A DNA stretch of 64,000 nucleotides. Source: an uncultured delta proteobacterium. GTDB lineage: Bacteria > Desulfobacterota > Binatia > Binatales > Binataceae. Below are positions 7,327 to 51,087 of the stretch, piece by piece; position 1 is the first letter of the stretch; the number at the start of each line of letters is the position of its first letter. The notes beneath the pieces are model-generated. The model had not been told where the DNA came from and ran no database searches. It saw only the letters and a program-made list of their open reading frames with translations. A program made the position numbers and the translations under genes. The stretch is from positions 352,001 through 416,000 of the forward strand of contig CAWCDG010000005.1 of NCBI GenBank assembly GCA_963794325.1, written 5' to 3'.

Positions 7327-8469
7327 TCAGTCCTGCACCAGGTTTCGAAAGTTCTCTGTGAAGAAGCGCGCCTTGGTCGCCTCGGGATAGTCGGCAATGC
7401 TCGCTTCGAATCTGCCGATCGGATCGCGGCCGCCCTCAGCGTGCGGATAGTCGGTCGAGAACATAAAGAGCCGGTCGTTGGACTGGCGGATCAGTTCGCC
7501 GACATCTTCGAAGGGATATGGCGTAAAGCGCAACTGATCGTCGATCTGTTCGGACGGCCGCCGCTGCATTTCGCGCAAATGCGGCTCGGGCTTTGACCAT
7601 ACGTTGGCGATATGATCGAGCCGCCGGCGCATCGCCGGAACCCATCCGGCGCCGAGCTCGATACATCCACCGCGCAAAGTGGGAAATCGATCGAGCACAC
7701 CGTCGAGGATCAGCACCGAGAGAAATTTTTCGGCGGAGTGAAAGATGCAAGTCATGTCCTTGGAGCCGACGACCTCGGCGCCGCCGCGCGCGGTCTTGCG
7801 ATTCGGGAAGCCGTCAATCATCCATTCGGGGCCGATCGACAACGTGCTGCTGCCGACGTGCAGCACGAATGACGCGCGCGCTTCAGCGAGTCGGGCCCAA
7901 ATCGGATCATGAGCGCTATGTCCCGGTGAGCGTCCGGGCGCTTCCGAGGGCAGCATGAACATCCGCAATCCTTCGGCCAGCGCGCGATCGAGTTCAGCCG
8001 CCGAGCGCTCGGGATCGTCCAACACGAGAATACCGGTTGCGACCAGGCGCGGTTCATCGGCAACGAACGCCATCATCGCGCGATTGAATGCCCTGACGCC
8101 TCCGTAGCGGACCTCGCGATCCTTGCACGCGAAAAGGGTGGCCGCGGCGAATGAAGAAAAGATGACTTGGCGCTGGATTCGCAGCGCGTCGAGCACATTG
8201 CCGCGCTCCTTGCTGTTGAATGCGCCGAGTGCGGCGTACCACTTCGGCCCGCGAAGGATTTGATCGCCAAGCGCTTTCAGCTCCGCGACGGTTTCCGGCG
8301 TATGGCCGTGCCTCCCGCTGTCGGGCAGTCCGGCCAATGTCGAATCGAGACTTCCGACCGGAAGGATCGCCGGCAAGCGGTCACGAATCGCAGGATCCGC
8401 ATACGCGGTCAGAAAATCCGGCAACTCCATGATATGGCTGTCGGGATCATTTAGAATTCGCGGCGTCAT
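7327..8469 (-). CDS. Amidohydrolase_2 family protein
   Basis: DPDSHIME, VLHVG, ELGAGW, FSTDYPHAEG; ATG at 8469 after GGAGG. Confidence 0.85.
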   Translation of the reverse strand: MTPRILNDPDSHIMELPDFLTAYADPAIRDRLPAILPVGSLDSTLAGLPDSGRHGHTPETVAELKALGDQILRGPKWYAALGAFNSKERGNVLDALRIQRQVIFSSFAAATLFACKDREVRYGGVRAFNRAMMAFVADEPRLVATGILVLDDPERSAAELDRALAEGLRMFMLPSEAPGRSPGHSAHDPIWARLAEARASFVLHVGSSTLSIGPEWMIDGFPNRKTARGGAEVVGSKDMTCIFHSAEKFLSVLILDGVLDRFPTLRGGCIELGAGWVPAMRRRLDHIANVWSKPEPHLREMQRRPSEQIDDQLRFTPYPFEDVGELIRQSNDRLFMFSTDYPHAEGGRDPIGRFEASIADYPEATKARFFTENFRNLVQD

Positions 8470-8559
8470 TGTCCTGACCTCCGAATCGACCTCGGCGGCA
8501 TCGATTGCTCGCTTGATCGATATCAGAATTGAAGGCCGATCATCCACGGGTCCACGGTC

Positions 8560-9331
8560 TTAAGGCTTGCCTGGAAGGGTGGGCGGTAAAGAACCCGGCA
8601 ACGCGGCCGGCGGCGGTGGCGCTATCCCCGCTCCACCAGTATCGCCCACCAAACTACTCACGTCACCGGACGGAATCCCTGTCATTCCTAGCGGTCCGGG
8701 CGACAGCGGAGGCGAGTCGCCAGGAATGGTAGTTTCGTAGCCCGCGTCAATCATAGTTTCCGAAGAAGATGGAAGCGCGGCATTTTGCGCGCCGACGCTG
8801 CCCTCGTAGGTCTTGACGTCCGTGAAGCGAGTGATTTCGCCGAACCCGTACCTGTGAGCACCATCCGAGTAGGCAGTGTCAAACTTGGTGCCGCGTACCG
8901 AAAGTATCGCGTTGGGTGTGTGGATCTGGAAATTGGGCGGACTGCCGCTAGAGGTATGCTTGACGATCGAGCGCAGGACTCCTGCAAGCAGGCCAATCTT
9001 CGTTGAAGTCGCGGCGCCATCAGCGCCTAGCAGTTGCTCATCGATCGTAAGCACACTTGCTGAGCCTGCTTTGAGAACGCTGCCGCCGGCTAGAGTTATG
9101 GCAAGGTGGCCCGAGGTAATAGTTATCTGATCGCCGATATCTACAACCGTCCCTATCGCCACATCGATTCGATTACCAGCTCGTTGAAGACTTGCGGTTC
9201 CGCTAAGGGCGGTCACGGACCCGGCGATAGTTTGCGCTTGCGCCATCCCAGCTGAATGCTAGGAACGCAAGGCAGCCAGCGATGGCAAGGATATTCGAGT
9301 CACGCGAGATTGAGCGGCACCGCAGCTTCAT
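8560..9331 (-). CDS. Secreted FecR-domain protein; signal peptide separated by a +1 frameshift at about 9248
   Basis: GSVTALSG...GDQITI...FQIHTPNAILSVRGTKF...YEGSV; upstream ATG 9331 gives MKLRCRS...ILAIAGCLAFLAFS, 85 nt (28 codons + 1) before ORF 9246. Confidence 0.75.
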
Positions 9332-9382
9332 AATTTTACTTAGCGTGGTCACTGAGATACGGACCTCCCAACCCGGGGGCAG

Positions 9383-12300
9383 CTAGCGATTCTCGCGCGC
9401 AGTTGGCTTGTCGCTCACAGTGTAAACTTGGCCGGCCCGAATGTAGAGCTTTCTGGCTTCCTCCAGCGTGAACGGGCGTGCGCCGCGGCGGCCGAAGACC
9501 GCCAGCTGGTTACCGCTCTCGTCGACGGCGCGATCGCGGTCGAGACCCTTCGGAATCGCAAGCGCGGGCCCTCGCGTCGCAAAGGTCGCGATCAGCTTGG
9601 GTGAAGGACGCGGAGAAAACCCCTGATAGGTTGGGGAGTCATTCGGAGAGATCAGCTCCAGCACGTGCAGGCCGTTCTTTCCGTCGGCCAGATATGCAAA
9701 AACACTTGCGTCGGTCATGCCTATCTTGGTGTCGTTCAGATCATTGATCTTGCCATCGGCATTGTAGGTCTGATCGATTCGCGGATGCTCGGGACGTTCC
9801 ACATCGACGATCACCAACCCCTGTGCTCCGGCTGATAAGTATGCGTAAGTGCGAGCCACGTAGATGTTGCGCGCATCCGGCAGCGCAATCGCGGCGGCGT
9901 CCACGGGGCGCGGACTGGTTGGCTCGGTAACGTCGATGACCTTCAGTCCCTGCGAGTCGACAACGAACGCGTAACGAAATTGCACCGAGATTGCCCGCGG
10001 CTGGACGACGTGCGGCGCGTTGACTTCGCTTACCACCTTGAGCTGTGCGGGGTTAGAGATATCCACAACAACGATTCCCCGATCGCAGAGCACGTACGCA
10101 TAGTTACCAGCGATCGTACCGCCGAGCGCGCCGTTCAGGATTCCGCCAGGATTGAACCCAGGGCCACGCTTGAAGAAGTTATCGTCCGGATTGCCATTCC
10201 CCAGGGTTATTACATCAACTGCTATAAGTCCTTCGTACTTGTCCGTGATGAAAGCGTACTCAGCAGAGAGCGGGGGCTTTTGCTCCAGGTTCTCCGCGCG
10301 ATGCGATCGCTGGGGATCTATAAGCATGGTCGTCGGCAGCATGACGGAGGTCGCGTACTTGGTCGACACGTAGGTTCGCTGCCCTAGCGGCGAAACGGGC
10401 GCGGAGGTAAATCGCTCGGAGAATCCCTTGTTGTCCAGATTCGCTATATCGTAAACGACGAAACCACCTTTGCCCTGCGCGGTGAAGAGATACTCCCCTC
10501 GATTCTGGATAGTCTTACATTCGCCGTGGAATTCAGGCGCGGCGCCTTTCCACCCGATCTTAAGGACTGCGCCATGCTCAAAGGAATCGTGCAGGACACG
10601 TCCGCCGGTTACGAAGGATTTGAATTCGTCGGGATAAGCCAATTCGTGCAGATGACTCCCAATAACAGCTTGAGGCTCGTCGCGTTCTGTAACGATCACC
10701 GCTTCCATTCCTTCAGTTCCTTCGGCAACCCAGCAGTACCTTCCGATGAAATTGACGAAATTGGTGCCTTGCATCAGCAACTGCGCCATCTTTGCGTTGT
10801 TGTCGTTGTCCGCCGAGATGTGACAATCGGTGCATTGCTTGGTCTCTTCCGCGCGGACCGTGTGCGGAACCGTCGTACTGAATGCCTGCGCGGCAAAGCC
10901 TTCGGCAGAAACTGGAACCTGCTGCGTGTAAATCACTTCGCGCTCGGGATTGTATGAAGAAACCTCGACGGCGCATGACGACCGCGCCGGCGAAATCCGG
11001 TTTCCGGTAGTCACGCCGTCCTTGGCGATCATGAAAACGTCGTCGCGCAGCGTCTGAAAGTTGTAGCTGGTCCAGTTGCGCGTCATGTCGCCGTCGTAGT
11101 GAAGAATCGGGCGACGCATGTTCGCCTTCATCGGCAGATGGCATCCGAAGCAACTCGGAACCCATGACGAATGACAGGTCTGACAGGCCATGCTATCGAG
11201 CGGATGCGCCAGGTCCGCATCGGAAACGTCGATTTTACCCCAGGTCTTACCGTCCTTCTGGATTGTGTGTGCATAGGCGGCCTCTTCCCAAGCACTCTTC
11301 CATGCCTTAGAGGCGGGATTATCGATCGTAGCGAGTTGAGGTATAGGCCATTGCAGGTCCTTGTCCATTGTGGATTGTTGCTTGACTTCGATTACGCCGC
11401 CAGCCTCGCGCCGCACTCGAAAGCGCTGTCCGAAGGGCGTCTTCTTCGCGCCGGAGTCCCTGGAGAAATTAATTCGCTCACCCGCTGCGCCATTACCGCT
11501 GGCTTCAAAGGTCGTGTACTTCGAGTAAGTACCGTGACAGTCCTCGCATCGAACCTGGATGGGCCCACGCACCTCATCATATAGCTTGCCATTACCATGT
11601 GCGTCGCCAACGAAATGGCAGTCTGCGCATTGCATTCCGTATTCATTGTGGATGTCCTGCAGCTTGACCGCCCGCCGCCACTTGTACTTGTTGTCTGCGA
11701 TCACGTGATCGTGCTTGTCGAGCAGATTACCGTGGGTATCGTGCTTCCAGACGTATCTGAATAGCCAGCCATGACCATGGAAATCGGCGAGCTGCACCCG
11801 GCTGAGTTTGGGATTCAGCTCAGAACTCGCCTGCAGGAACTTCCGATCCGACCATAGACCTTTGACGTTGGCGCCCTCGGGATTCGCCATCAGGTCAACC
11901 GCTTCTTCGTCCGCTCCGGGACGCTTGGCCTTCTTTGGGTAGAAGAACTCACCGTCACTTTCATTGTCCCACCAGATGGTGCCGAAGTAACTGTTAGTGA
12001 CGGTAGTCCCCGGATGGACATGGCATACGACGCACTGGGACGAAGGAATTGAATTAGTCAGTTGATGCTTGATGGGATAGCCTGACACATCTTTAGGTAT
12101 CGACTTGTCCGCCGACGCACTGTGGCCGGTATTTCCGAACTTTGCGAAGGTTCCCGAATGCTCCTTGTCGCTATCGTTCGCATAAACGACGTGGCAAGAG
12201 GTGCATCCGCTGGACCTATAGTCGCCCGGATGATCGTTGGTGCCGAGAAACCACAGCGTTGGATCCATGAGACGGGTCTTGTGCAGGCTGAGAAACACAG

Positions 12301-13138
12301 GGTCCGTTCGCACCTTGGTGCCCAGGCCTCGGACACTCAGGCGGTTTTCGCCACGCTCGAAGACACGAAGGACGTTGCCGGGCTGTGAGATCTCAAAGCG
12401 GGCGAGCGGATCCAGATAAGGCACGACTCCATGTTTGAGGGTGTCCTCCGCAGTGGGAGGGGGAAGTGTTTGCACGCGAGTAGGATTGCCGTTCTCCGAG
12501 TAGGACTCGCCGAATCGCCCGATTTTCTCAGGATAAACTCCGTTGTTGTATAGCGCCGCTTCCCACAGCATGGGACCGGTCGCCATCATGCTCTTGCGGA
12601 CGTTCTCGACTTCGTCGATGTGGCATCCCTTACTGCCGCAACTCATACGCGCCGCGCGCAAATCGCCCGGATTCACAAATCGCACAAACTGCGGCGACTC
12701 GTTGTTTAACATCGAATAGGAGCGCACCGGATTCTGGCCGCTCTTTGGCCAATCTTCGGGATAAAGCGGCTGAACGTGAGCAGTTTCTTTTTTTGACGCC
12801 TTAGGATCTCCGCCGTGACAATCGACACATCCTATGGGCAGTTTGTCGGGATGCATCTCCTCGATTCCTGCGTGACAACCGGCCGCTTTGCAGCCGACGC
12901 TTTTCGCATCCGCCTCGGCCTGCGTCTGATCGGAAATGTCCGGCGGAATTATTACTTTGGCGTCTGCAAGGCGGGCTGGTACTGAATGCTCCGGAAGCAT
13001 CGCGCCAGGATTTGCAGGATCGTAAGCGCGATTGCATCCGAGATACACCATAGCTGTGCCGAGAATCGCGCATACCACGAGAGCTACGCGCAGCATGGTT
13101 CGTATCAACTGCGTAGGGTGGTCTCGGCTCGGTATCAC
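9383..13138 (-). CDS. Large multiheme c-type cytochrome lipoprotein with C-terminal LVIVD-repeat beta-propeller
   Basis: Lipobox YLG-C; 8 CxxCH (CVDCH, CTSCH, CVVCH, CADCH, CEDCH, CQTCH, CFGCH, CTDCH) plus 2 CX4CH (CKAAGCH, CGSKGCH); repeats GIVVVDISNP, GLKVIDVTEP, GLVIVDVERP. Confidence 0.88.
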   Translation of the reverse strand: MIPSRDHPTQLIRTMLRVALVVCAILGTAMVYLGCNRAYDPANPGAMLPEHSVPARLADAKVIIPPDISDQTQAEADAKSVGCKAAGCHAGIEEMHPDKLPIGCVDCHGGDPKASKKETAHVQPLYPEDWPKSGQNPVRSYSMLNNESPQFVRFVNPGDLRAARMSCGSKGCHIDEVENVRKSMMATGPMLWEAALYNNGVYPEKIGRFGESYSENGNPTRVQTLPPPTAEDTLKHGVVPYLDPLARFEISQPGNVLRVFERGENRLSVRGLGTKVRTDPVFLSLHKTRLMDPTLWFLGTNDHPGDYRSSGCTSCHVVYANDSDKEHSGTFAKFGNTGHSASADKSIPKDVSGYPIKHQLTNSIPSSQCVVCHVHPGTTVTNSYFGTIWWDNESDGEFFYPKKAKRPGADEEAVDLMANPEGANVKGLWSDRKFLQASSELNPKLSRVQLADFHGHGWLFRYVWKHDTHGNLLDKHDHVIADNKYKWRRAVKLQDIHNEYGMQCADCHFVGDAHGNGKLYDEVRGPIQVRCEDCHGTYSKYTTFEASGNGAAGERINFSRDSGAKKTPFGQRFRVRREAGGVIEVKQQSTMDKDLQWPIPQLATIDNPASKAWKSAWEEAAYAHTIQKDGKTWGKIDVSDADLAHPLDSMACQTCHSSWVPSCFGCHLPMKANMRRPILHYDGDMTRNWTSYNFQTLRDDVFMIAKDGVTTGNRISPARSSCAVEVSSYNPEREVIYTQQVPVSAEGFAAQAFSTTVPHTVRAEETKQCTDCHISADNDNNAKMAQLLMQGTNFVNFIGRYCWVAEGTEGMEAVIVTERDEPQAVIGSHLHELAYPDEFKSFVTGGRVLHDSFEHGAVLKIGWKGAAPEFHGECKTIQNRGEYLFTAQGKGGFVVYDIANLDNKGFSERFTSAPVSPLGQRTYVSTKYATSVMLPTTMLIDPQRSHRAENLEQKPPLSAEYAFITDKYEGLIAVDVITLGNGNPDDNFFKRGPGFNPGGILNGALGGTIAGNYAYVLCDRGIVVVDISNPAQLKVVSEVNAPHVVQPRAISVQFRYAFVVDSQGLKVIDVTEPTSPRPVDAAAIALPDARNIYVARTYAYLSAGAQGLVIVDVERPEHPRIDQTYNADGKINDLNDTKIGMTDASVFAYLADGKNGLHVLELISPNDSPTYQGFSPRPSPKLIATFATRGPALAIPKGLDRDRAVDESGNQLAVFGRRGARPFTLEEARKLYIRAGQVYTVSDKPTARENR

Positions 13139-13157
13139 TCTCGATCGCTCCGACTGC

Positions 13158-15152
13158 TCAATAGGTCAGCGTGAGATTCATGAAGCTCGAGAAGAGCGTC
13201 TTTGCCTGATAGATATCGCGAAACCCATTGCCAGGAGCCAGGACCGAGAACCCGCCGGTCACGATGACGTTATCAATCAGCAGCGGTCGGTAACGGAACG
13301 CGACACTGTAGTCAAAACCAACATTGTGACCCAGGTCATTTTGATGGAGTATCGATTCCAGAACGGCAACCTTGTCGAACTGGATGAAGCTCACGTTAAA
13401 CATCGCCATAAGCTCAGGCGTGATCTTGGCGTCAACACCCGCGTTGTACTGCAAGACGCCGGGATTCACGAAGTTTGCCTGCCCCTGTAGTTTGTCACGC
13501 AAATCCGGAACCAGGCTCAAAGGATTGATCAAAGGAACTTGTGTGCCGGACAAGCCGATACCCACACGGTTGAAATAGGAGAATGGGACTCCGGAGAAAT
13601 TCGGATCGTCCTGTATCGTGTCGAATCCGCTCGCGGTATGCCCGTGTGGGTTGCCGCTCCCCGACGCATAGAAAAAGGAGCCCCTGAATCGGAGCCAATC
13701 GTGATCGTACGAGAGCTCGAGCGCTGCCATCTGCGCGTTGATATTGACCTTGTGGCCGGCGATGTCGTTGAAGCCGTCGTGGCCAACGGCTTCGTAGAAC
13801 GCATGCGAGACGTTGATTCGGCCTATGTGACCGTCACTGGTACAGCCGAAATAGGCCGTATCGACAGCGTGAGGTTTAACCGTTCCGATCAACGACGGAC
13901 GCACCAGGAACCCATTGTCGTTGTATAGGATGTGTCCGTTGTCGTTGTTATAGGCGAAGTCTAACTGCATATTGTAGCCGTCAAACAGAAAATCCTGACG
14001 GGTGAAGTTGAACAGTCCTATATTCTGATCGCGCCCGACGAATAGCGTGTTCAGTCCGCTGTTAGTGTCCTTTTCGAGAGGCCTGAAGTATGCGAGGTTC
14101 CATTGATCGCGGTTCGACTCGAAATTGCCGAACAGTCGAATGCCCGGATCGTTGTCAGAGAAGATGAAGCCACGGAAATCGCTGGTGAAACCCTGAACAC
14201 CCGCAGTCACTGACACGATGTCGTAGTAAGGGCTGAGGTCGGCGAGCTTGTAGGATACGAAGGCCTCCTGCACCGCGATGTGGCCGTTGGTGCGAGTGGT
14301 TCCATCGGCCGGATTGACATTGACGATCCCTCTTTCGTTTGTGTCCAGGTAGTTGAGATTGAACACCGGGGTAAACTTGAATTCCCAATCAAGCGGCTTG
14401 AAGCCCGCATCGCCATGGAACAGGTCGAACGAAAAAATCAGATTTTCCTGAACTGAAGTCTCGTCGCCGCTGCCAAAAAAGTTTGAACTATTCGGGCTCT
14501 GGGTGCTCACTCCGCTGGCCACCGGTAGCCGTTTGAACACCCAATCGACGTCATTGACTCCGGTCAGATCCAAAAACGTGTGGTCGCCAATAATCGGATA
14601 GTCGCCTTTCAGCACGTTCTGGTCGTAAGGATCCCACCAATGCCCCAACTGATACGGGTATTCGCCGGGGGTATTGAGCGTGTAGCGATCCCAGTCAGGA
14701 AATCCTATGCGCCATCGATCCGGTACCGGGATGAAATCCTGATCCGGAGTGGACTTAACCGCGGGCTCTAATACCGGTGGCGCAAAACCAAGCGGCGCCA
14801 TCGGATTAGTCGCGCCGCTCCATTCGGCGGCCTGCGCCTTCAGCTTCTCGTCGGTCGAGCTGGCGCTGCTTTTGTTTGACGGGCTCGAATTGGACGCTGC
14901 CTCCGTCGACTGGTCGTCGTTGGCCGCGACTATTCGTGGAAAAAATATTGTGACAGAGACGAGGAGACCGACAACGCTCAGGCGGAGCAGGCTTCGAGAA
15001 CCGATAGCGAATCGCGAGGTCGCGACCACCGCAGGAGCCCGACTGTTATTCAAAACAGGCGGAACATATTCCAGACGTTCGCATAGTGTCAACCATTGCG
15101 GAGGCCCGGCTTGACTCTGGGCAAGTCCTCTTGTGTATTGTAGCCGACTCAA
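13158..15152 (-). CDS. Putative outer-membrane beta-barrel protein
   Basis: Signal-like segment RSLLRLSVVGLLVSVTIFFPRIVAA, amphipathic aromatic/Gly/Asn-rich strands, C-terminal beta-signal-like FMNLTLTY; true start probably about 15053. Confidence 0.75.
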   Translation of the reverse strand: MSRLQYTRGLAQSQAGPPQWLTLCERLEYVPPVLNNSRAPAVVATSRFAIGSRSLLRLSVVGLLVSVTIFFPRIVAANDDQSTEAASNSSPSNKSSASSTDEKLKAQAAEWSGATNPMAPLGFAPPVLEPAVKSTPDQDFIPVPDRWRIGFPDWDRYTLNTPGEYPYQLGHWWDPYDQNVLKGDYPIIGDHTFLDLTGVNDVDWVFKRLPVASGVSTQSPNSSNFFGSGDETSVQENLIFSFDLFHGDAGFKPLDWEFKFTPVFNLNYLDTNERGIVNVNPADGTTRTNGHIAVQEAFVSYKLADLSPYYDIVSVTAGVQGFTSDFRGFIFSDNDPGIRLFGNFESNRDQWNLAYFRPLEKDTNSGLNTLFVGRDQNIGLFNFTRQDFLFDGYNMQLDFAYNNDNGHILYNDNGFLVRPSLIGTVKPHAVDTAYFGCTSDGHIGRINVSHAFYEAVGHDGFNDIAGHKVNINAQMAALELSYDHDWLRFRGSFFYASGSGNPHGHTASGFDTIQDDPNFSGVPFSYFNRVGIGLSGTQVPLINPLSLVPDLRDKLQGQANFVNPGVLQYNAGVDAKITPELMAMFNVSFIQFDKVAVLESILHQNDLGHNVGFDYSVAFRYRPLLIDNVIVTGGFSVLAPGNGFRDIYQAKTLFSSFMNLTLTY

Positions 15153-15257
15153 TCCGGGGATGATCTTTTCCCCAAGGTCGACTGCTCGCTATCGTTCGCT
15201 GGGGGCCTGGAGCAACGAATGGGTGACAAGCATCGAGCTGCAAAGGAGGGCGCCAGC

Positions 15258-16793
15258 GTGCGTCGAGGAGCGATGGTCCTGCTCGCCTTCGTTCTTAGCG
15301 CGATGCATCCTGTTGCCGTTTGCGCGCTCGAAACGTTGAACACAGCGCCTCTCACTGTCAGCGACGTCGAGAACATAATCTCGGCGGCCGTGACCCGTGC
15401 GGTGCACGACAGAGTGGCTGTGATTGTTGCCGTAAGCGATCGCGAGGGTAACCCGCTCGCCGTTTACGACATGACCAACGCTCCAACCGGCAGCAAGGAC
15501 GCCGACGTCATCAACAGAATTGCGACGCTGCCCTGCTCTCCTCCCACCACAACGCCTTGCAATCCGACTCTGGCAGAGCGCACTGCGCTGGAAAAAGCCC
15601 GGACGGCGGCATTTCTGAGCAGCGACCAGGACGCGTTTTCGACCTTGACCGCTGCGACTCTGGTCGCAACTCACTTTCCGCTGCATATCTCCAACACTGC
15701 ACAAGCGCCATTGTTTGGCCTGCAGTTTTCTCAACTCCCATGCAGCGACGTGACGCCGGCTAACGGCGCGACTGGGGCGCTCGGCGGTATCCCGCTGTAC
15801 AAAAATAACGACATTGCCGGTGGAATCGGCGTCGACGGCGCAAGCAAGGGCGAAAACGAAAAGATCGCGTTGGCCGGCGATTCGAAATACAGCCCGAGCG
15901 CCGCAATCACCGCCAACCAGATCTACCTCGGCGGATTTCAGCTGCCATGGACCAATCAGCCGCCGCCGAAGCGGCTCGCATTGATTCCATTCGCCAGCCT
16001 CCCCGGAGCCCCCAGTCCGAACTACCCGGACATAATCGCCACTCCACCGACGAGCTTCCCGCCCGCGGTGTTTGCAGGAGTCGCAGGCGAGATTCGCTTT
16101 CCAATCGTGGACAGCTCGAGGCCGGTTCCGGTGAAGCTCACGGCGGCGGACGTGACGACGATAATCACCCAGTCTGTTGCCATAGCCAAACAGACCCGCG
16201 CGGCGATTCGCCAACCTATAGGGGTGCCCGCGCGAATGCAGGTCGGCGTGACCGATCTCGATGGCTCAATCCTTGGCGTCTTTAGAACTAACGACGCAAC
16301 CATGTTCAGCCTGGATATTGTTGTGCAGAAAGGTCGCTCAGTAACCGCATTCAGCGATCCCAATCAGCCTCTCGGTCATCAGTTGCGGCAATCGCTCGGA
16401 GTCGGCGCCAATCGCGAGATTGCCTTCACGACGCGAACGATTGGATTCCTGGCCCAGCCTTTCTATCCACCGGGCATTGACGGGACATCGCCGGGACCGC
16501 TACTCCACTTGCAGGGTAATCTGTTTAAGATGAAACCGACGGCGCCATGCATTCCCAATGGTGTTACCAACGGCGATGGCATCACCGCGTTTCCGGGTAG
16601 CACTCCGCTGTACAAGTCGGGGATCCTCGTCGGCGGGCTCGGTATCAGCGGCGACGGCGTCGACCAGGACGACTATGTGACAAACGCGGGCGCAGCAGGT
16701 TATCTCCCGGACCTATCCATTAGGGCAGACCAGATTGTGTTTCGAGGCACCCCGCTTCCATTTTTTAAATTTCCGCGACAGCCGGGTTTATAG
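15258..16793 (+). CDS. Secreted tandem GlcG/HbpS (DUF336) heme-binding-like protein
   Basis: AAGGAGG RBS + GTG 15258; signal peptide; two domains: VAVSDREGN..ALEKARTA..GGIPLYK..GGIGVDG and GVTDLDG..VQKGRS..PGSTPLYK..GGLGISGDGVDQDD. Confidence 0.82.
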   Translation: MRRGAMVLLAFVLSAMHPVAVCALETLNTAPLTVSDVENIISAAVTRAVHDRVAVIVAVSDREGNPLAVYDMTNAPTGSKDADVINRIATLPCSPPTTTPCNPTLAERTALEKARTAAFLSSDQDAFSTLTAATLVATHFPLHISNTAQAPLFGLQFSQLPCSDVTPANGATGALGGIPLYKNNDIAGGIGVDGASKGENEKIALAGDSKYSPSAAITANQIYLGGFQLPWTNQPPPKRLALIPFASLPGAPSPNYPDIIATPPTSFPPAVFAGVAGEIRFPIVDSSRPVPVKLTAADVTTIITQSVAIAKQTRAAIRQPIGVPARMQVGVTDLDGSILGVFRTNDATMFSLDIVVQKGRSVTAFSDPNQPLGHQLRQSLGVGANREIAFTTRTIGFLAQPFYPPGIDGTSPGPLLHLQGNLFKMKPTAPCIPNGVTNGDGITAFPGSTPLYKSGILVGGLGISGDGVDQDDYVTNAGAAGYLPDLSIRADQIVFRGTPLPFFKFPRQPGL

Positions 16794-16838
16794 ATATCGG
16801 AGCCAAGGTGTAGAAGTGATGCCGAGAGGGAGGTCCAC

Positions 16839-17477
16839 ATGAACAAACCAACGAGTAACCTTGCCGCGTTCCTCATGATGGCGCTCGTGGCGGGCCTTTT
16901 CGCGTTGACGCCATCCGTAGTGCTGGCCGACGGACATGCGTACGTCGGTGAAAGCAAATGCGAGGACTGCCACGATTCGCAGCACGAAAAACTCGACGTC
17001 ATCGGCCCCGACGGCACTAAGTCCGACCCGGTCACTGTCTGGATGAAGGACCCTCACCATAAGGCATTCGATGCGTTGACTGGGGATTGGGGAAAACAGG
17101 CGGCCAAAAAAGCGAGCGTCGCCGATCCACAAGCTGACGGATCGATGTGCCTGACTTGTCATGCCACCGGCACGGGCGGCAACAATCCACCTGATCCTAG
17201 TGAAGGAGTGTCATGCGAGGCATGTCACGGTGCAGCGGCTGACTATGTGGCAAGAGACAAGCACGGCGAGATCGGCAACGATCCGGCGAAAATGGCGGCG
17301 GCGGTAGCGCTGGGTATGATCGATATGCGCAAGATTGACGTGCGCGAGAATAATTGCCGCGGCTGTCACGTGGTCGATACTTCCAAGCGGCCCTGCTATC
17401 GCGCAAGCGAGAAGCCCTTCGACGTTCACAATGACAAGAAGTTCCGGCATTGGAGAGATAACATCCCGCCAATCTGA
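16839..17477 (+). CDS. Periplasmic tetraheme cytochrome c (c554-like)
   Basis: Signal peptide; YVGESKCEDCH, CLTCH, EGVSCEACHG, CRGCH; GGAGG RBS. Confidence 0.88.
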   Translation: MNKPTSNLAAFLMMALVAGLFALTPSVVLADGHAYVGESKCEDCHDSQHEKLDVIGPDGTKSDPVTVWMKDPHHKAFDALTGDWGKQAAKKASVADPQADGSMCLTCHATGTGGNNPPDPSEGVSCEACHGAAADYVARDKHGEIGNDPAKMAAAVALGMIDMRKIDVRENNCRGCHVVDTSKRPCYRASEKPFDVHNDKKFRHWRDNIPPI

Positions 17478-17548
17478 TCTGATCCTGGGTTGAGCCGCTA
17501 ACTGCATCATGAGGGGCCGGCGGGCTAGCCGACTCCTTATGTCGTCGA

Positions 17549-20096
17549 TCAGAATCCTTTTCGAGTCATGCGGATACCTATCGATTTCATGAATGCGGTC
17601 GGCAACTCCGCATTTAGCATCGCGAACACGAAGTCGTTCTCGATTTCAATCGGCTCGGTCAGCCTTACGACGCTCGGATTGGCTTCTTGGCGCTCCGCGG
17701 AGGGTGTCTGAGGCGCTCGCTCTTCGGTCTTGCGGCTTCTGAACGATGTTGTCAGCCACGCGAATAAACCACGCCGCGGCGGTTGTTGAGCAGACTGGTC
17801 TGTCGTTTCCTGCACCTGCTGGCGCGATGATTCCGCCATTGGAGCAAGGACGACTTTGCCAGGTTTGATCTCGGTCACTTGACTCCACGGATACACAGTA
17901 ATCTGCGCTCTCTGCTGCAGGTCGCTGATTTTTACGGCGTTCTCAGGCGAGACCCGCGAACTGAGTGCCGCGTCGCGGAAGGAGTAGGAGACGGTATTGC
18001 GCAGCGCAGGATCCGCGAGCATCTGTGTCACCTCGGCGCCGGAGTTTCCCCCTCCAACGACCAGGACCCGCTTGTCCTTGAACTCCTCGGGCTCGATCAG
18101 GCCGTAGAAAACGCGATCGGCCGTTTCGCCATCAACATTCAGCTTGCGTGGAGTGCCACGCACGCCGATTGCCAGGACTACATAGCGCGCTTTGAAGCTT
18201 TTGCCGGGACGCGTTGCGATTTCAAACAATTCGTCGGCCCGACTTATGGAAATGACCTCCTCGCGCTCATTGATCTGGAGCTGCATCGTACGCAGCATCT
18301 CTTCCCATTTTTCGACCAGCTCTTCCTTGGTGCGATCGCCCTCCAAATAGAAGGAGCCGTATTCATCCAGCTCGATTGGACTTGCCTGAACAAACTTGCC
18401 GCGCGGAAAGGTGCGGATCGTGCTTGCCGCAGTATCTTTCTCCAGCGCCAGGTAGTTCAGCCCATTTGACTTGGCCGACCATGCCGCGCCGATTCCCGTC
18501 GGACCGCATCCAACTATCGCGACGTCGTAAACCTCGGGCTCGACCGCTCGCTTCTCATGTCGAATCGCATTGGCAATAGCCACAACCACCTGGCGGCCCG
18601 AACGCATCACAAGATTGATCGAGGACGTTCGTCCGCTAGCTTCGCCGGCGACATAGACGCGTGGGACGTTGCTCTCATAAGTGTCGTCGAGCACGGGAAT
18701 CTCCGGCGTTCGCTGTGGACCGGAGTCCGAAACCAGCCGGCGACGTGATTCCGGCGGCAGATAGCGGAGGTAGCCAACTCCGATCAAGGTCATAGTCACC
18801 AGTGCGAGGATCGCGAGCCACCACGGACGCAACGTGACCCTTCGAAGCGCGATGCTCGGAGATCCATTGTGCAAGCCGTGCAACGAAATCGTGTAGGCCG
18901 CAAGCCGCAACTCCGGCGGTTGATGGGGCCGGGTCGTAGGCGCCTTGGACGGGAAATCCTTGATCAGTTTGCCGCCGCGATAGTAGGTGTGGAACGCGTG
19001 GCAATCAGCACAGGCATTAAGCGTCTTCTCCCATGGATAACTCCAGTACCTCGAGCTGACCAGCTTCAGCTCGACTCGAGCTCAGGATGCCAAGGGGGTC
19101 TGTCCATGACGCTACTTGCCCCGAGGGTGTTCCTGCCTCGTGCGCGTGACAACTGAAGCATTTCCCGATCTCTCTGGTGCTCGAATCCCGCGGCTTCTCA
19201 CTCTCCTCGATATGCAGATGACACTCGGCACACTCCGCCTTTAGATGACCCGCGGAATGAGGTGTGAAAGTCGCGTTGATAGGACGGAACACTGCTGACT
19301 CAACAAACGGGATTGTCGGAGGCTCGGGCGTAGCGCTGCCGGCGGCGCTCGCGAGCTTCAAGTCTTCGTCCTGCCAACTCGAATGGCAGGTGCTTGCGGT
19401 GCATCCGGTGGTTACTATCGCAAATTCTTCGGGCTTTTCGCGTGACGGAGCGCTCACCAGATGACACGACCGGCAAGCGAGATGCTGTTCCGTGTGATCG
19501 AGCCCGCCGGCCAGCTCCGCAGCGGCCTTCTCGGCAGCTTGCTTGCGCGACGCTGATCGCATCCTTTGCGCGTCGGTTCTCGCTTCCCGCAAGTGTTTGA
19601 GAGTGTCTTCGAGATGCTGCTTATGGTTGAAGTCCTTGGCAAAGTTTTGGATCGACTTCCATTGAACATGCAGGCTGTGACCGTGTGCGCCGACCCCAGC
19701 TATCGAGTCATGCGCATGACACGCGCTGCAACTAGTTCCCGAAGTGGCGACAAAATCGACCTTGCGGCCCTTGTGATCCGTATGGCAAGAAAGACATGCC
19801 AGTTGATCGTTGAAACCAGCCAGATGCTTTCCGGGGTCCAGCCCAACGTCCTTGTCGTCGAGATTGACGTTCAAGTGGTCGGAGTTATGAATAATGTTAC
19901 CGTGACAATCGACACATCCGGTGCTGGCTAACGCGACGCCGCTCCACGGCTGGTGGCATACGGCGCAGTTTCCACCGAAGGGCTCGTGACCTTCAAGGAC
20001 AGGGCCCGGCGAATAACTTCGATGGAATGAGAGCAGGATGGCCAGCACCGCCAGTGTGACTATGCCGGCGACTGTCAGTTGGCTACGGCGCTTCAT
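17549..20096 (-). CDS. Multiheme cytochrome c fused through a TM helix to an FAD/NAD(P)H oxidoreductase (TrxR/YpdA-like); +1 frameshift at about 19031
   Basis: ATG 20096 overlaps the upstream stop (ATGA); 7 CxxCH + 1 CX4CH before the shift; the +1 frame continues EKTLNACADCHAFH...ELRLAAYT into ORF 17549..18910 with GCGPTG, GVRGTPRKL and GGGNSG. Confidence 0.8.
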
Positions 20097-21028
20097 ATTC
20101 CGCCGAAGTAAAGAACCCCTACCACGTGAAATATCAGAAGTGCGAATGTCAGCACCGATAAGACTATGTGAAGATCCAGCCACCCAGTGCTGAGATGAAT
20201 ATTGAAAGAGTTATGATCGAGATTTACCTTGCGAGCCGCGAGGGCTAGAAGCTCGCGATAGGTCTTCTCATCGCCGGATTCTGCAATCCTTGCGGCCGCC
20301 GCCGCGCAGACTTGCTGACCGGGATCGATACCCTTTATCGTCGCCATCAAGAGAGTCCATCTCGACGCGGATCTATCGCTGAGAAGTATAGGCTTGATGT
20401 GGTCGATGTATGCCTTGGTTAGCTGCTCGCTATGCCCGAGAATTTTCTCCTCTGCCTCGCGATAGACCGCGCTGACCTTGGAATCGACATCCTCGAGCCG
20501 CACCTGGTGCTCGGCGAGCCGCGTCATCGCGTGCGGAAGTTTGTCCTGCAGTATCGCGCCGAAGATTCCGCTGATGAATAGCAACAGCACGAGTGTTGCG
20601 AGCGCAGCCTCCAAAGGACTCATCGCGGTCGTGGTGATGTGCCACGACAAGGGCAGCAACGCGAGCATCCCGAGCGTGAGATGAAACGCGCGCCATGTTT
20701 CGAGCCGATCTAGCTGGACCAGCCGATGTTGAATTGAGGCTGGAAAGATCTTCCCAGTGAATTGCAGCACGCGGATCGAGAACCAGATGTTGCGCTTGCG
20801 GACGCTGTACCATGCGATCGCGATAAAGCTTGCCAGCGCGATAGAGCCCGACCAGTATTCTCCAATCTCACGCCCGAAGGTTGAAGTCGCCGCGTTCAGG
20901 CCTGCCACCGCGATCAGACAAATGGTCAGCCAGAGCCAGATGCGGATCGGGATCGCGCGACCTCGGCGATCGCGAATATTCAAGGTTGGTCGGTTTGCGG
21001 CGGCGGCTCGAGCCTCTCGAGTAGCCAT
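20093..21028 (-). CDS. Integral membrane protein with four TM His (cytochrome b/ferric-reductase-TM-like)
   Basis: WYSVRKR, WRAFHLTLG..LSWH, WLDLHIVLS..LLIFHVV; 5-6 TM helices. Confidence 0.7.
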   Translation of the reverse strand: MATREARAAAANRPTLNIRDRRGRAIPIRIWLWLTICLIAVAGLNAATSTFGREIGEYWSGSIALASFIAIAWYSVRKRNIWFSIRVLQFTGKIFPASIQHRLVQLDRLETWRAFHLTLGMLALLPLSWHITTTAMSPLEAALATLVLLLFISGIFGAILQDKLPHAMTRLAEHQVRLEDVDSKVSAVYREAEEKILGHSEQLTKAYIDHIKPILLSDRSASRWTLLMATIKGIDPGQQVCAAAAARIAESGDEKTYRELLALAARKVNLDHNSFNIHLSTGWLDLHIVLSVLTFALLIFHVVGVLYFGGI

Positions 21029-21031
21029 CGG

Positions 21032-22706
21032 CTAGTCGTTCGAGCCCATGGCTTTTCTGACGCGATCGGGCCCGGCGATTACCACGCCGGTCGCGGTCGG
21101 GAAGAGATCGGAAGGCTTGATTCTCATCGCGGAGCCCGTCGGGCACGCATGAACACATCCCATGAACGGAAGCCCGTCGCACAGATCGCACTTTATGGGA
21201 TAGGCAGCCGGGATGTGGGCCGCGCTCTTTGACAAAGACTCGGTGCTCGATTCGGACTGCTCTTTGGATGCCTGATTGCGGCCAAGAATCCGTTGCCAGA
21301 GGCTGCGCTCGATCCGCTCGTGATCGCCGCGCTCGTGACTCGCAAAGATCCTGCTCCATAGGCCTTGTTCGACCGCGTGTGAAGGAACCGGATAAGGCCG
21401 GAAGAATTCTTTGCCGAGAGTCTCGGCTTTTCGATCCTGCGCCGCATCGAACTTACCGGTCTCGATCATCGCGATGTTGTCGTAGGGGCAGGCGATCGCG
21501 CAATTGCCGCATCCGATGCACATGTCGTATTGAAAGTAGATCTCGCCTTCCGGCCTTCGCTTGACCGCGCCGGTCGGGCAACTGTTCATGCATTTGGGAT
21601 CGTCGCAATGGCGGCACGCGGCCGGTATCAGGTATTTGCCCAGCTGGATCCCGGTCCTAATCAGGCGGCTGGTGCCATGAAGCGACTCGCACGCGGTTAC
21701 GCAATTATCGCACTTGACGCATAGGTCCAGATCCATCACCAGCAGCGCATCGGCCTGAATGACGCCAAACTGTCCGCTGTCTTTCAGAATCTCCGATAGC
21801 TCCGGCGTCAACTGTTCCTCAGCCGCGAGGCGGCGTTCTATGGTCGAACGCACTTGCGCTTCGGCCGAAGGAAATTGCTTGATGAGAGCCGCGACGTCCT
21901 CGCCGAGAATCTTGATCACCTCGCACTTACCCGCCGTTAAGACGCTCGCATTGCGAACGCCGCCACCGCCGATCAGCGACATCTCGCCGAAATACTCGCC
22001 GGCCCGCCGATATGCGAGCACCCGTTGAGTGCCATCTTTGGCTTGGCGGACAACTTGGACGTAGCCGTCGCGGACGATGTACAGACTGTCGCCGACCTCA
22101 CCCTGCTTGACCAGCACGATTCCGCGTTGGTCGTAGCGTTTGATCTCGCAATCCGCGAGCAGGCGATCGATGAACTCGTCCTTAACGCCCTTGAAGAGCT
22201 CGAGTTCATTGACCATCACGCGAATTGCGCGTTCGCGAAATCGGGCGGAGAGCAAGGCGCGTGCCTCGTCATTCGTTTCGACAAATTTGAGGCAATGCCG
22301 CGGGAATGTAGAAGATCTCGGCACCGTCCTGCGCAGCGACTATATCCAGCGTGCGTGGAAGTCCGCCCAACGCGCCCATTTCGCCGTAGAACTCGCCGGC
22401 GACACGCGCGGCAACCTTGGTCCTGACCGCGCCATCGATTTCGAAGAGGTCCACGCCGCCCTTCAGAATGAAGCAGAGATCGAGCTCATATTCGCCCTTA
22501 CTGCAGATGAGCTCGCCCCGGCGAAAATTCGCGAGGCGCATCGCAGCCTCGGAATCAAAGCCTTTCAGGAATGCGTCGCGCTGTTCGTCAGAAAAATGTT
22601 TGAAGAGATCGAATCCGGAAAGCTCGGACCACAATTCGTTCCCGGGCCTTCTAATCGGTACTCCAGCAAAACTCACAGGGCCACCGGCTACCGTGCCGCT
22701 GCTCAT
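21032..22706 (-). CDS. Two cNMP-binding domains plus a 4x[4Fe-4S] DmsB/NrfC-like domain; +1 frameshift at about 22303
   Basis: GEFYGEMGALGGLPRT and GEYFGEMSLIGGGGVRNA; CVKCDNCVTAC, CRHCDDPKCMNSCP, CIGCGNCAIACP, KCDLC..CVHACP; the join reads AEIFYIPRHCLKF. Confidence 0.85.
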
Positions 22707-22741
22707 CTGTCAATAGCGGCCGACTGAACCGCATTTCGCTT

Positions 22742-23464
22742 TTAGAATCTTTCCTTGAAGGGACGGACTTCGAGCTCCATCGTCCATGCGCTCGGATCCT
22801 GATGCGCGAGATGCCAGTAGGTCTCTGCGATCGCCTCGGGCTTGAGAAAGTCGCCGTCTTTCAGGCTCGGCTTTAGTCCCCGCGCGCCAGGGATGTCGAT
22901 GCTGCCGTCCACGTTGATCCACACCACGTGGATGCCTTTCGGACCAAGGTCGCGAGCGAGTGATTGCGCCAGCCCGCGCATCGCGAACTTCGCGGGTCCA
23001 AACGAGACCGACTTCGCCCCAGCCTTCACGCCGGCGGTCGCCCCGGTGAAGAGCATCGTGCCATGCCCGCGCGCGATCATGCCGGGCGCGACTTCCTTGG
23101 CTGCGACGAACGCCCCGAGCGCATTCACCCGCCAGTCCGCTTCGTACTGCTCGGGCGTGATCTCTGTGATACTTCCGAATGCGCCGGTGCCCGCGTTATA
23201 GAGGAGCACCTCGGGCTCGCCGAGTTCTTTCCGAATGACGCGAAACGCATCGGCTATCTGCGCGGGATCGCTGACATCGCAACTGACGTCCAACACCGTC
23301 GCGCCGCTCTTCCGGACCTCGCCAGCGAGTGCTTTCAAATACTCCGCTTTGCGCGCGAGCATGGCGACCGCGTAGTTCGTAGCGAAGCGACGGGCGAGTG
23401 CGGCGCCAAGTCCCGGACCGACTCCGATAACGACCGCAACAGGTTGGTTAGACAGGGTACCCAT
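22742..23464 (-). CDS. Short-chain dehydrogenase/reductase (atypical)
   Basis: GVGPGLG, LYNAG, FTGATAG, FGPAKFAMRGLAQSLARDLGPKGIHV. Confidence 0.88.
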   Translation of the reverse strand: MGTLSNQPVAVVIGVGPGLGAALARRFATNYAVAMLARKAEYLKALAGEVRKSGATVLDVSCDVSDPAQIADAFRVIRKELGEPEVLLYNAGTGAFGSITEITPEQYEADWRVNALGAFVAAKEVAPGMIARGHGTMLFTGATAGVKAGAKSVSFGPAKFAMRGLAQSLARDLGPKGIHVVWINVDGSIDIPGARGLKPSLKDGDFLKPEAIAETYWHLAHQDPSAWTMELEVRPFKERF

Positions 23465-23540
23465 AACTGGTGCTCCTTTGTGCGTGACGCGCTAGCGACT
23501 GCTCGCCAAGTGCATTCTCGCATGACACTCCAGTGATTGC

Positions 23541-24398
23541 CTATTTGTCTGCGGCGACATCGGAGCCGCTCCGGTCACTGGGTGCAGGGGTCACCCCTGC
23601 CGCCAGGATCGCGAGCGCGGTCTTGTGCAGCTCGCGATCGCCGGCGGCGATGATTTGTCCACCGTCGTACGGCGAGCCGCCCGACCAGTTCGTCACGACT
23701 CCACCCGCAGCCTCGATGATCGGGATGAGCGGCTGGATATCGTAAGGCTGCAAGCCCGATTCGATAACCAGGTCGATGAAGCCCGCGGCGACGAGGCAGA
23801 ACGAATAGCAATCGCCGCCGTAACGCCTCATGCGCGCCTTCGACGCCACCGCTCGAAACGCATCGCGCTCGCCCGGTCCCGTGAACATCGCAGGATCGGT
23901 TGCGCTGACGATCGCGTCGTCGAGCCGCCGGCATTCCCGCACGTTAAGCTTGTCGCTGGAACCGCCGCGCCTCAGTTCGGCCCCCATGCGCGAACCAACG
24001 AACGTCTCACCCGTGTACGGCTGATGCATCACGCCAATCACCGGCCGCACACCGTCGTTGAGTGCGATCAAAACTCCCCAATGCAGTTGTCCGATAATGA
24101 ACGCTCGCGTGCCGTCGATCGGATCGATGATCCAGGTGAGCGGGTCGGTGCCGGCTGCGAAGCCATGCTCCTCGCCGAGGATGTTGTGGCCGGGATAGAC
24201 GCGCTGAATCTCGTCGCGAATCGCCTGCTCCGCCGCACGATCGGCGAGCGTCACCGGATCGTAGCCGGCCCCGGCGATCTTGTTCTCGACCTCGAGGCGC
24301 GCGCGAAAGTGCGGCAGGATCGTGCGTCCCGCGAGGTCCGCGAGATGGCACGCGAATGCGGTGTACTCCGAGATCGCGCGATCGTCCATCGTCGTCAT
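23541..24398 (-). CDS. hisN: Histidinol-phosphate phosphatase, inositol monophosphatase family
   Basis: DPVTLADRAAE, GEEHG, WIIDPIDGTRAF, YGGDCY, LQPYDI. Confidence 0.82.
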   Translation of the reverse strand: MTTMDDRAISEYTAFACHLADLAGRTILPHFRARLEVENKIAGAGYDPVTLADRAAEQAIRDEIQRVYPGHNILGEEHGFAAGTDPLTWIIDPIDGTRAFIIGQLHWGVLIALNDGVRPVIGVMHQPYTGETFVGSRMGAELRRGGSSDKLNVRECRRLDDAIVSATDPAMFTGPGERDAFRAVASKARMRRYGGDCYSFCLVAAGFIDLVIESGLQPYDIQPLIPIIEAAGGVVTNWSGGSPYDGGQIIAAGDRELHKTALAILAAGVTPAPSDRSGSDVAADK

Positions 24399-30955: not shown

Positions 30956-30982
30956 TACATCGGATCGCGCGGTGTCGGTAAA

Positions 30983-51078: not shown

Positions 51079-51087
51079 GGTGTAGCG

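Follow-up and report, generated by a model that had tools for sequence, protein, structure and literature searches.

Positions 9383 to 22706 of a 64,000-nucleotide stretch of DNA from an uncultured Binatia bacterium (hereafter the window) encode seven adjacent proteins with multiheme, iron-sulfur, cyclic nucleotide-binding, flavoprotein and outer-membrane barrel domains, referred to here by the letters A to I of their open reading frames (ORFs). Comparison of the sequences with those of related loci indicates that the cluster consists of two separable modules, an inner one made up of I-H, G and F-E, and an outer one made up of B, A and C. We propose, at about an even chance of being right, that the two modules cooperate in a regulated export of electrons from NAD(P)H (reduced nicotinamide adenine dinucleotide or its phosphate) to a terminal cytochrome associated with the outer membrane. 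The system is real, widespread and uncharacterised, and a sister arrangement of genes, ptd, has already been named.

As the window stands, the locus contains nine long ORFs, which reduce to seven proteins when two split pairs are merged. They form three transcription units on both strands: B and A lie together with a gap of 19 bases, C and D diverge from B, and a closely packed group of I/H, G and F/E converges with D. An initial annotation, made from the sequence alone, had described seven proteins acting as a single unit with about 23 c-type hemes. ORF and domain searches bore out the proteins, their domains and their positions once the two split genes were repaired, and counting of heme-binding motifs gave 10 in A, 4 in D and 9 in F-E, for a total of 23. 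The description of the seven genes as one unit was not sustained, given the two modules, the three transcription units and four genomes of the window's family in which the inner module stands alone. A single N-terminal hydrophobic segment was found in each of A, B, C and D, together with an anchor in F, a membrane helix at the start of E and several segments in G, with none in H or I. Each cluster gene is present in a single copy in the window's genome, which encodes cytochrome c maturation genes and only eight ORFs with at least three CxxCH motifs, three of these being in the cluster.

Two of the proteins are interrupted in the window, where F (19017-20183, minus strand) and E (17549-18910, minus strand), and likewise I (22269-22706, minus strand) and H (21032-22324, minus strand), overlap in different frames. 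When short-read contigs from four soil runs were compared with window positions 17500-22800, the extra base at 19033 that breaks F-E was absent from contigs belonging to runs X2 and X3, and the extra base at 22301 that breaks I-H was absent from a contig of run X1 (depth 13.5), with no further insertions or deletions reported in the contigs over this interval. No contig of run X1 spans 19033, and X2 and X3 show 18 further differences from the window in the piece around this position, indicating that they come from a near strain. Removal of the two bases in silico gave an F-E protein of 886 residues and an I-H protein of 558 residues, both open from stop to stop. Each is a single ORF in the close relatives L001, L004, L005 and L085, the last of which encodes an 885-residue cytochrome with a Pyr_redox_3 domain (L085:7787-10444) and a 547-residue I-H (L085:5295-6938). 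Both frameshifts are most likely assembly errors, and the intact short-read contigs and relatives rule them out as marks of pseudogenes. If the assembly contains further errors of this kind, they may also account for genes that appear split elsewhere in this genome.

The repaired F-E protein begins with an N-terminal anchor, followed by nine heme motifs predicted to lie in the periplasm, a second membrane helix, and a flavin adenine dinucleotide (FAD)-NAD(P)H domain predicted to lie in the cytoplasm. F as called carries seven CxxCH motifs and one Cx4CH motif behind the anchor; the ninth motif sits in the frame of E, upstream of its called start, and the repaired ORF has eight CxxCH and one Cx4CH motif ahead of the FAD domain. 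E itself begins with a membrane helix and continues as a YpdA/thioredoxin-reductase-like FAD-NAD(P)H domain, which matched Pyr_redox_3 above cut-off (118 bits) and scored 139.8 bits with the YpdA family TIGR04018 (cut-off 339.9). In G (20093-21028, minus strand), a membrane protein of di-heme-b type that the initial annotation had listed as a 4-His protein, histidines 116, 130, 287 and 301 proved invariant in one comparison of 15 sequences (15 of 15) and in another of 11 (11 of 11). They fall into two pairs with a spacing of 14 residues, one pair to each of two hydrophobic helices, a predicted layout that is the pattern of di-heme b proteins. G scored 18.3 bits with DUF4405, below the gathering score of 26.7, and matches of its family to Pfam were weak, with DUF4405 found in 5 of 11 members, Ni_hydr_CYTB (cytochrome b561) in 1 of 11 (3e-6) and Ferric_reduct in 1 of 11 (0.0018). 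A profile of G searched against the PDB gave matches at chance level only.

I and H contribute one cyclic nucleotide-binding (cNMP) domain each, that of H being joined to ferredoxin-type motifs, and the merged I-H protein has two cNMP domains and four sets of [4Fe-4S] motifs with a predicted cytoplasmic location. Fifteen cysteines of H are invariant in 12 sequences and make up these four sets in the pattern of four-cluster ferredoxins of the NrfC/DmsB/DsrO type. The DsrO family of NCBIfam matched H at 69.3 bits (cut-off 200) and is not an equivalog of it.

Relatives of the inner module join its domains in other combinations. The G domain is fused behind an iron-sulfur domain in seven loci of Acidobacteriota with Pyrinomonadaceae- or Blastocatellia-type titles (L066, L038, L054, L021, L040, L077 and L058). 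A single 1330-residue protein, L088:8988-12980 (+), combines three FHA domains, 11 heme motifs, a Fer4 domain and a FAD domain, while L087:6203-10180 (-) and L090:8658-10790 (+) join NuoE/NuoG-like iron-sulfur domains to two cNMP domains, and cNMP domains occur with FHA and Fer4 in L091 and L092. The latter locus, from the same class as the window, also carries a gene for an FHA-GAF-adenylate/guanylate cyclase (L092:3428-5335, +) beside genes for a ten-heme cytochrome and a cNMP-FHA-Fer4 protein, and this cyclase is a possible source of the cyclic nucleotide signal. Three kinds of NAD(P)H-type flavoprotein recur at the module or fused to it: the YpdA/thioredoxin-reductase-like domain of the window, Pyr_redox_2, found near the module in 12 loci, and a NuoE-F fusion, found near it in 6. 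Their recurrence is consistent with the link to NAD(P)H that the initial annotation had drawn from the window.

In the outer module, A (9383-13138, minus strand; 1251 residues) is a secreted protein with a decaheme c-type cytochrome domain (residues ~80-775) and a C-terminal LVIVD beta-propeller (residues ~830-1251; PF08309, 86 bits against a cut-off of 20.2). Its heme motifs comprise eight CxxCH and two Cx4CH, and all ten are invariant in 26 sequences together with exactly ten further histidines. Because ten extra invariant histidines accompany the ten motifs, bis-His ligation is possible for every heme of A. No CxxCK motif, the mark of the NrfA-type catalytic heme, was found in A. When a profile of the heme domain was searched against the PDB, an octaheme nitrite reductase was matched (E-value 8.7e-7, 30.6 bits) over two stretches of ~40 and 55 residues and NrfA at E-values of 0.04-0.06; a likeness to either enzyme over the whole heme domain was not found. 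ExtM, an NCBIfam family of a selenite/tellurite operon, scored 73.5 bits with A (cut-off 800), and the ESM Atlas showed only uncharacterised LVIVD-cytochrome clusters. Single-sequence searches of the PDB with A and with B, and a search with a B profile, gave no match at an E-value of 1 or below.

The propeller of A gave weak profile matches to YncE-family propellers in the PDB (E-value 0.0025). Of its 451 residues, 111 are conserved at 95% or more in a set of 56 sequences; many of these are Asp, Glu, Arg and Gly, and no conserved His, Cys or Met is among them, on which ground the idea of a catalytic metal site in this domain was rejected. The initial proposal that terminal chemistry might sit in the LVIVD part is for the same reason not supported, and from its conservation pattern we take the propeller to serve in docking or binding and not as a metal-centre enzyme.

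B (13158-15152, minus strand; 664 residues) matched no family in Pfam or NCBIfam. From a 16-sequence alignment, AlphaFold2 modelled residues 186-664 as an all-beta barrel of long antiparallel strands, about 18-19 in number, with a predicted local distance difference test score (pLDDT) of ~80-90. Foldseek searches of the PDB with this model returned AlgE as the nearest solved fold (E-value 6e-15, target template-modelling score 0.64-0.69, identity 9-12%), with general and substrate-specific porins next in rank. A beta-barrel at this place had been named beforehand as a point on which the initial annotation could fail, and the modelled fold agrees with an outer-membrane barrel of ~18 strands. 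The first 185 residues were not modelled; they include a segment of ~65 residues (120-185) that is strongly conserved. B ends in an aromatic residue and has a single N-terminal hydrophobic segment at 58-76, and its true start probably lies some 90-125 bases inside the called ORF. Across phyla B is ~50% identical, which is unusually high for a plain porin.

Relatives of B are abundant in public metagenomes, where 6176 of 8000 scored candidates matched at an E-value of 0.001 or below, amounting to more than 6000 relatives; none of those examined bears a functional name. With a Bryobacterales-titled B as query, 7942 of 8000 candidates matched at an E-value of 1e-50 or below, and the 120 best matches all came from metagenomes or metagenome-assembled genomes, with no cultured carrier among them.

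A complex of B (residues 120-664) with the propeller of A, predicted in one job, scored 0.54 (runs 0.54, 0.01 and 0.62), compared with 0.01 for the best control, and was graded by the tool as weak support. The pLDDT of the partner was at least 71 and the contact agreement between runs at least 0%. Of 157 solved complexes, 116 attained the mark for this score, as did 2 of 215 mismatched pairs, but only 18 of those complexes, and both mismatches, lay at 0.60 or below. The score is above that of the control, the runs disagree, and the modelled contact is a hint only.

Two proteins of the cluster are encoded on the plus strand. C (15219-16793) is a secreted tandem HbpS/GlcG-like protein that matched PF03928 over three stretches (90.3 bits against a gathering score of 25), and D (16839-17477) is a periplasmic tetraheme c554-like cytochrome with four CxxCH motifs (PF13435, E-value 2e-10). 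The MtrA/DmsE family TIGR03508, with a cut-off of 192.2 bits, scored 18.2 bits with D and 20.5 bits with F.

Conservation of the locus was followed in 80 loci, the best 80 of 590 confirmed among at least 599 candidate stretches with B relatives, and presence was scored by tblastn at 1e-5 with each window protein. A relative of A was present in 73 of these loci and adjoins B there, and relatives of C were found in 58, H in 26, D in 15, F in 14, G in 9, E in 4 and I in 3. Where at least 8 kb of sequence flanked B on both sides (41 loci), A was always present (41), accompanied by C in 33, another multiheme protein in 31 and a flavoprotein cluster in 11. Conserved neighbours in Acidobacteriota were multihemes with MtrC/MtrF domains, an FHA-multiheme membrane protein, Pyr_redox_2 proteins and the NuoE-F fusion; no Fe(II) or heme transporter was seen in the conserved neighbourhood, and no polysaccharide export genes were found among the conserved neighbours.

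Three further features were noted around these genes. Eight loci have a gene for a 129-residue PD-(D/E)XK protein (PF13366, E-value 3.7e-40; for example L067:11752-12141) between B and A, which looks like an inserted selfish gene. A conserved protein of ~265 residues with no Pfam match is encoded between C and small multihemes in L054:6809-7552 (-) and in 22 other loci of Pyrinomonadaceae type. In two genomes of the class, matches to A and B fall into several pieces with TGA stops (G189:C1:415780-420046 and G144:C47:112012-114237), which may be decaying copies or the result of poor assembly.

The two modules are associated in whole genomes as well. Among 121 genomes of the class, B was found in 26 and A in 26, with 25 in common and both exceptions at contig ends, and the G-family profile matched 34 genomes including all 26 carriers of B. 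The eight genomes with G only comprise four strong matches in the window's own family, one strong match in an assembly of 710 contigs and three weak matches. In the Pyrinomonadaceae-titled family of L054 (81 genomes), B occurred in 38 and the iron-sulfur-membrane fusion in 39, with both in 38, the fusion only in 1, B only in 0 and neither in 42; leaving out the unpublished genome G234, both were present in 37 of 80. The modules also occur together without linkage, at a distance of 447 kb in G222 and on separate contigs in G297 and G262, and they lie next to each other, in differing gene orders, in loci of Binatia, of Terriglobia type and of Pyrinomonadaceae type. In a Planctomycetota-titled phylum, the outer pair gave strong matches in 43 of 301 genomes. 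This comparative genomics, with A beside B in 73 of 80 loci and the di-heme-b/iron-sulfur module in 26 of 26 and 38 of 38 carriers of B, supports the earlier supposition that the parts are functionally linked.

We infer the electron-transfer steps, their direction, their regulation and the acceptor from the parts observed, their predicted sides, their conservation, co-occurrence and fusions. An outward chain is suggested because sidedness, cofactor motifs, fusions and co-occurrence all fit it. In this chain the FAD domain of the E part would oxidise NAD(P)H and pass electrons to the four [4Fe-4S] clusters of the cNMP-binding I-H, from which they would cross the inner membrane by way of the two b hemes of G with no quinone involved. 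The b hemes would then reduce the nine c hemes of the F part on the periplasmic side, and these would reduce the periplasmic tetraheme D or, in relatives, other small multihemes. D would deliver electrons to the ten hemes of A, held at the barrel B, probably via the propeller. Since all ten of its hemes can be bis-His ligated, A would serve as a wire rather than as a catalytic site, and would reduce an acceptor that is outside the cell or enters via B. C may serve as a heme- or iron-binding helper.

Flux through the chain would be set by the cNMP domains, and in relatives likewise by FHA domains; this regulation is suggested by the presence of both domains on cytoplasmic parts and by the neighbouring cyclase in one relative. 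Outward flow would run with the membrane potential and down the redox scale, an argument made by reasoning and not by computation. The role of B in such a chain could take two forms. An exit of electrons via B appears favoured by how highly B is conserved, by a heme ligation that is wire-like and by the complex score, weak as it is, and entry of the acceptor via B to a periplasmic A appears favoured by the narrow barrel and the plain signal peptides.

Several observations weigh against NAD(P)H-fed export through two cooperating modules. An E-like FAD domain was found with the query used in only 9 of the 26 B-carrying genomes of the class, and no E-like flavoprotein was found beside Pyrinomonadaceae-type clusters. 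Only 18 of the 41 well-flanked loci have a cNMP-iron-sulfur gene within 10 kb of B, and 10 of the 41 have neither such a gene nor another multiheme. The four genomes of the window's family with strong G matches carry a stand-alone I-H, G and F-E operon without A or B, which implies that the inner module has other partners too. Related genomes are not independent, and the counts are for this reason given without a significance test. The AlphaFold2 model of the A heme domain was unusable (mean pLDDT 37), and the complex runs disagreed in a prediction that was itself weak. MtrB has 26 strands. A barrel of 18 strands would be much narrower, and the heme chain may not pass through B. The export signal of A points in a similar direction: the initial annotation had called A a ten-heme lipoprotein with an LVIVD propeller, of which the hemes and the propeller stand but the lipoprotein does not extend beyond the window and L004, the only sequences with a Cys directly behind the signal h-region. 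Just 2 of 53 N-termini are lipobox-like, and 42 of 53 relatives have no Cys at that place. Since most relatives have an ordinary signal peptide and lack a lipobox, A is periplasmic by default.

These last features bear on an alternative that is possible, although we consider it rather unlikely, in which A would act within the periplasm as the terminal reductase and B, like AlgE or OprD, as a channel dedicated to its substrate, with no protein route for electrons across the outer membrane. The acceptor, which would be soluble, might be Fe(III) in chelated form, quinone-like organic matter, or an oxyanion of nitrogen or of a metalloid. A channel would fit the nearest folds of B, which are AlgE and then substrate-specific porins, and a periplasmic reductase would fit both the plain signal peptides of most A relatives and the distant likeness of A to octaheme nitrite reductase, NrfA and ExtM; kinship with NrfA is also stated for PtdA, a product of the sister ptd operon, in the preprint describing it (10.1101/2023.11.21.568154). 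Against a reductase, the ten invariant non-motif histidines of A leave no obvious open heme, there is no CxxCK motif, and the propeller has no conserved metal ligands. The ~50% identity of B across phyla, together with its conserved N-terminal segment, is unusually high for a plain porin, and the predicted contact between B and the propeller, weak as it is, also counts against this alternative.

Less probable still is a protective or assimilatory system, in which the electrons would reduce Fe(III) for uptake or counter stress driven by heme, iron or peroxide, with the HbpS-like part binding iron or heme. MsrQ with Fre, and the NOX/Fre enzymes, work in this way, and the carriers include many soil lineages with record titles that name mostly aerobic groups. 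In the window, a gene with a FecR domain (PF04773, E-value 3e-9) lies at 8560-9246 (minus strand), 137 bases downstream of A on the same strand, and HbpS of Streptomyces is described as binding iron and heme and guarding against iron-mediated oxidative stress (PMC3754957). However, a relative of the FecR-domain gene was found in only 1 of the 80 loci, 23 hemes would be a heavy cost for assimilation, and the conserved neighbourhood holds no Fe(II) or heme transporter.

The remaining alternatives are far weaker. The parts are in themselves direction-neutral, and the porin-cytochrome systems MtoAB and PioAB run electrons inward, but it is very unlikely that here the outer module oxidises a donor outside the cell or in the periplasm, such as Fe(II) or reduced humics, for the inner module to reduce NAD(P)+: such flow would go against the membrane potential, electrons from a high-potential donor would by this reasoning have to move uphill to NAD(P)+, and nothing in the module can be recognised as an energy-coupling part such as a quinone site or a subunit that pumps protons. 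That the modules are chance neighbours with unrelated functions, as the four genomes with the inner module alone and the 23 of 41 well-flanked loci without adjacent modules might suggest, is equally improbable and close to refuted by their complete co-occurrence, unlinked cases included, in two lineages that are far apart (26 of 26 in one, 38 of 38 in the other), and by adjacency that recurs in three lineage types with differing gene orders.

The locus was compared with known electron-transfer systems to place the export proposal among them. The initial annotation had called it undescribed, a claim overtaken by the ptdABCDEFG operon, whose nearly identical set of parts was named in a 2024 preprint that reports it from marine Alpha- and Gammaproteobacteria, Nitrospirales and Planctomycetes and gives its function as "completely unknown" (10.1101/2023.11.21.568154). 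The parts named there are a pentaheme protein with a beta-sandwich, a porin, a FAD/NAD(P) oxidoreductase, a tetraheme, a cNMP-binding 4Fe-4S protein, a ferric-reductase-like membrane protein and a decaheme, and its authors propose a porin-cytochrome complex. In composition the likeness is extensive: a porin beside a multiheme, the FAD/NAD(P) oxidoreductase, the tetraheme, the cNMP-4Fe-4S protein and the ferric-reductase-like protein are all present here.

The two arrangements differ, going by the operon description in that preprint, in several respects. PtdA is a pentaheme protein with a beta-sandwich and kin of c552, whereas A has ten hemes and an LVIVD propeller, and the profile of the A heme domain found no pentaheme c552-type chain in the PDB. 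An HbpS-like protein is present here and none is listed for Ptd, and multiheme and flavoprotein form one polypeptide here. PtdG is given as a separate periplasmic decaheme; its possible counterpart here has nine motifs, is membrane-anchored and is fused to the flavoprotein. Two 4Fe-4S clusters are stated for the Ptd protein compared with four motif sets in I-H, and the Ptd carriers named are marine, compared with the soil lineages found here. Short PtdA-like forms of A were sought with the propeller profile among 1.84 billion representatives, which gave 35831 matches at an E-value of 0.001 or below, mostly giant LVIVD-repeat proteins. Six shorter proteins with a single match were considered as such forms: P0244, P0245, P0246, P0248 and P0263 start inside the region aligned to the heme domain, and P0284 ends in the middle of the propeller. 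We read all six as gene fragments, which provide no bridge to Ptd.

Like MtrCAB and the porin-cytochrome conduit OmbB-OmaB-OmcB (Pcc), the cluster has a barrel gene beside a decaheme gene, periplasmic multihemes nearby and a presumed delivery of electrons to the cell edge. Unlike them, B has ~18 strands with AlgE as its nearest fold and no match to the MtrB/PioB family, no protein matched an MtrA or MtrC family above cut-off, A lacks PF22113 and A is not a conserved lipoprotein; PF22113 is matched by some of the neighbouring cytochromes in Acidobacteriota loci. Supply would also differ, since electrons would come here from a cytoplasmic iron-sulfur/flavoprotein module and in MtrCAB come from a quinol dehydrogenase such as CymA. 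By every tested feature, the cluster is outside the Mtr and Pcc families.

The inner end of the proposed route resembles NOX/Fre and MsrQ-Fre, in which NAD(P)H reduces a flavin and the electrons then cross the membrane by way of two b hemes, which are ligated by four His located on two helices. Here a four-cluster iron-sulfur protein would stand between flavin and b hemes, the acceptor side would be a membrane-anchored nine-heme cytochrome, and Ferric_reduct, the NOX/Fre domain, was matched weakly by a single one of the 11 G members. The Hmc and Tmc complexes of sulfate reducers, which join periplasmic multihemes, a membrane cytochrome b and cytoplasmic iron-sulfur proteins without an obligatory quinone, share this set of parts with the cluster. 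They differ from it in that an HdrD-like subunit is absent here and cNMP, FHA and NAD(P)H-flavoprotein domains as well as an outer-membrane module are added, and NCBIfam matches to HmcA, HmcB, TmcA and DsrO were weak and far below cut-off.

Two further comparisons concern the outer end. Conserved porin-multiheme clusters, EET1-EET4, have been reported in a 2026 preprint from peat Acidobacteriota and Verrucomicrobiota as divergent in sequence from Mtr/Omc, one of them being termed a "porin-scaffold-cytochrome system" (10.64898/2026.05.27.727921). They are alike in combining a conserved porin with multihemes in the same phyla, but the main text of that report contains none of the terms LVIVD, propeller, HbpS, cyclic or NADH, although its figures or supplements may show the cluster. 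B shares with AlgE the fold of an 18-strand barrel at 9-12% identity, and differs from it in that B matched no Pfam family and that polysaccharide export genes are absent from its conserved neighbours. Literature on LVIVD with multihemes, on GlcG/HbpS/DUF336 with multihemes and on Binatia with multihemes yielded no description of an A-B-C module, and papers on LVIVD in general included none that dealt with cytochromes.

If the proposed route from NAD(P)H to the cell edge is correct, extracellular electron transfer would gain an entry point that does not depend on quinone, and the route would be a rare electron-transfer chain with built-in second-messenger control through cNMP and FHA domains. 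It would also give abundant soil lineages an ability for extracellular electron transfer that is not known for them, and offer a testable candidate for unexplained iron and organic matter reduction in soil, while the B family, with thousands of relatives in public metagenomes, is one in which no member has been functionally named. On a more speculative and doubtful extension of the proposal, the inner module would be a new class of "electron export valve", an NAD(P)H:periplasm oxidoreductase independent of quinone and regulated by cNMP and FHA domains, that in dominant soil phyla feeds a new terminal complex at the outer membrane, consisting of the decaheme-propeller protein, the 18-strand barrel and the HbpS-like protein. 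The two together would reduce iron, organic matter or oxygen outside the cell. Members of the Acidobacteriota, Binatia and Planctomycetota that look aerobic would then gain a switchable, non-respiratory outlet for reductant, or a means of extracellular redox chemistry in soil.

The composition and distribution of the locus in the window's surroundings fit an accessory, mobile trait that may have been acquired by transfer. G+C content is 0.55-0.58 in the cluster (window 10001-22000), compared with 0.60-0.62 in both flanks, and the cluster is present in 2 of 7 sampled genomes of the genus, the window's own included. An Rfam scan of positions 8000-24000 gave no match, and promoter and terminator scans gave counts at chance level. 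A weak sigma-70-like site with 10 of 12 hexamer matches lies at 15063-15092 (minus strand), upstream of the probable true start of B; with 4 such sites in the region and 5.8 expected by chance, this site alone is not evidence of a promoter. Elsewhere in the window, three consecutive SnoaL-like genes (30518-32103, minus strand) adjoin genes for an F420-type oxidoreductase, a short-chain dehydrogenase and an NADPH-dependent FMN reductase, and positions 49192-57003 (plus strand) encode an AMP-binding enzyme followed by a 1971-residue type I polyketide synthase with the domain order KS-AT-DH-KR-ACP.

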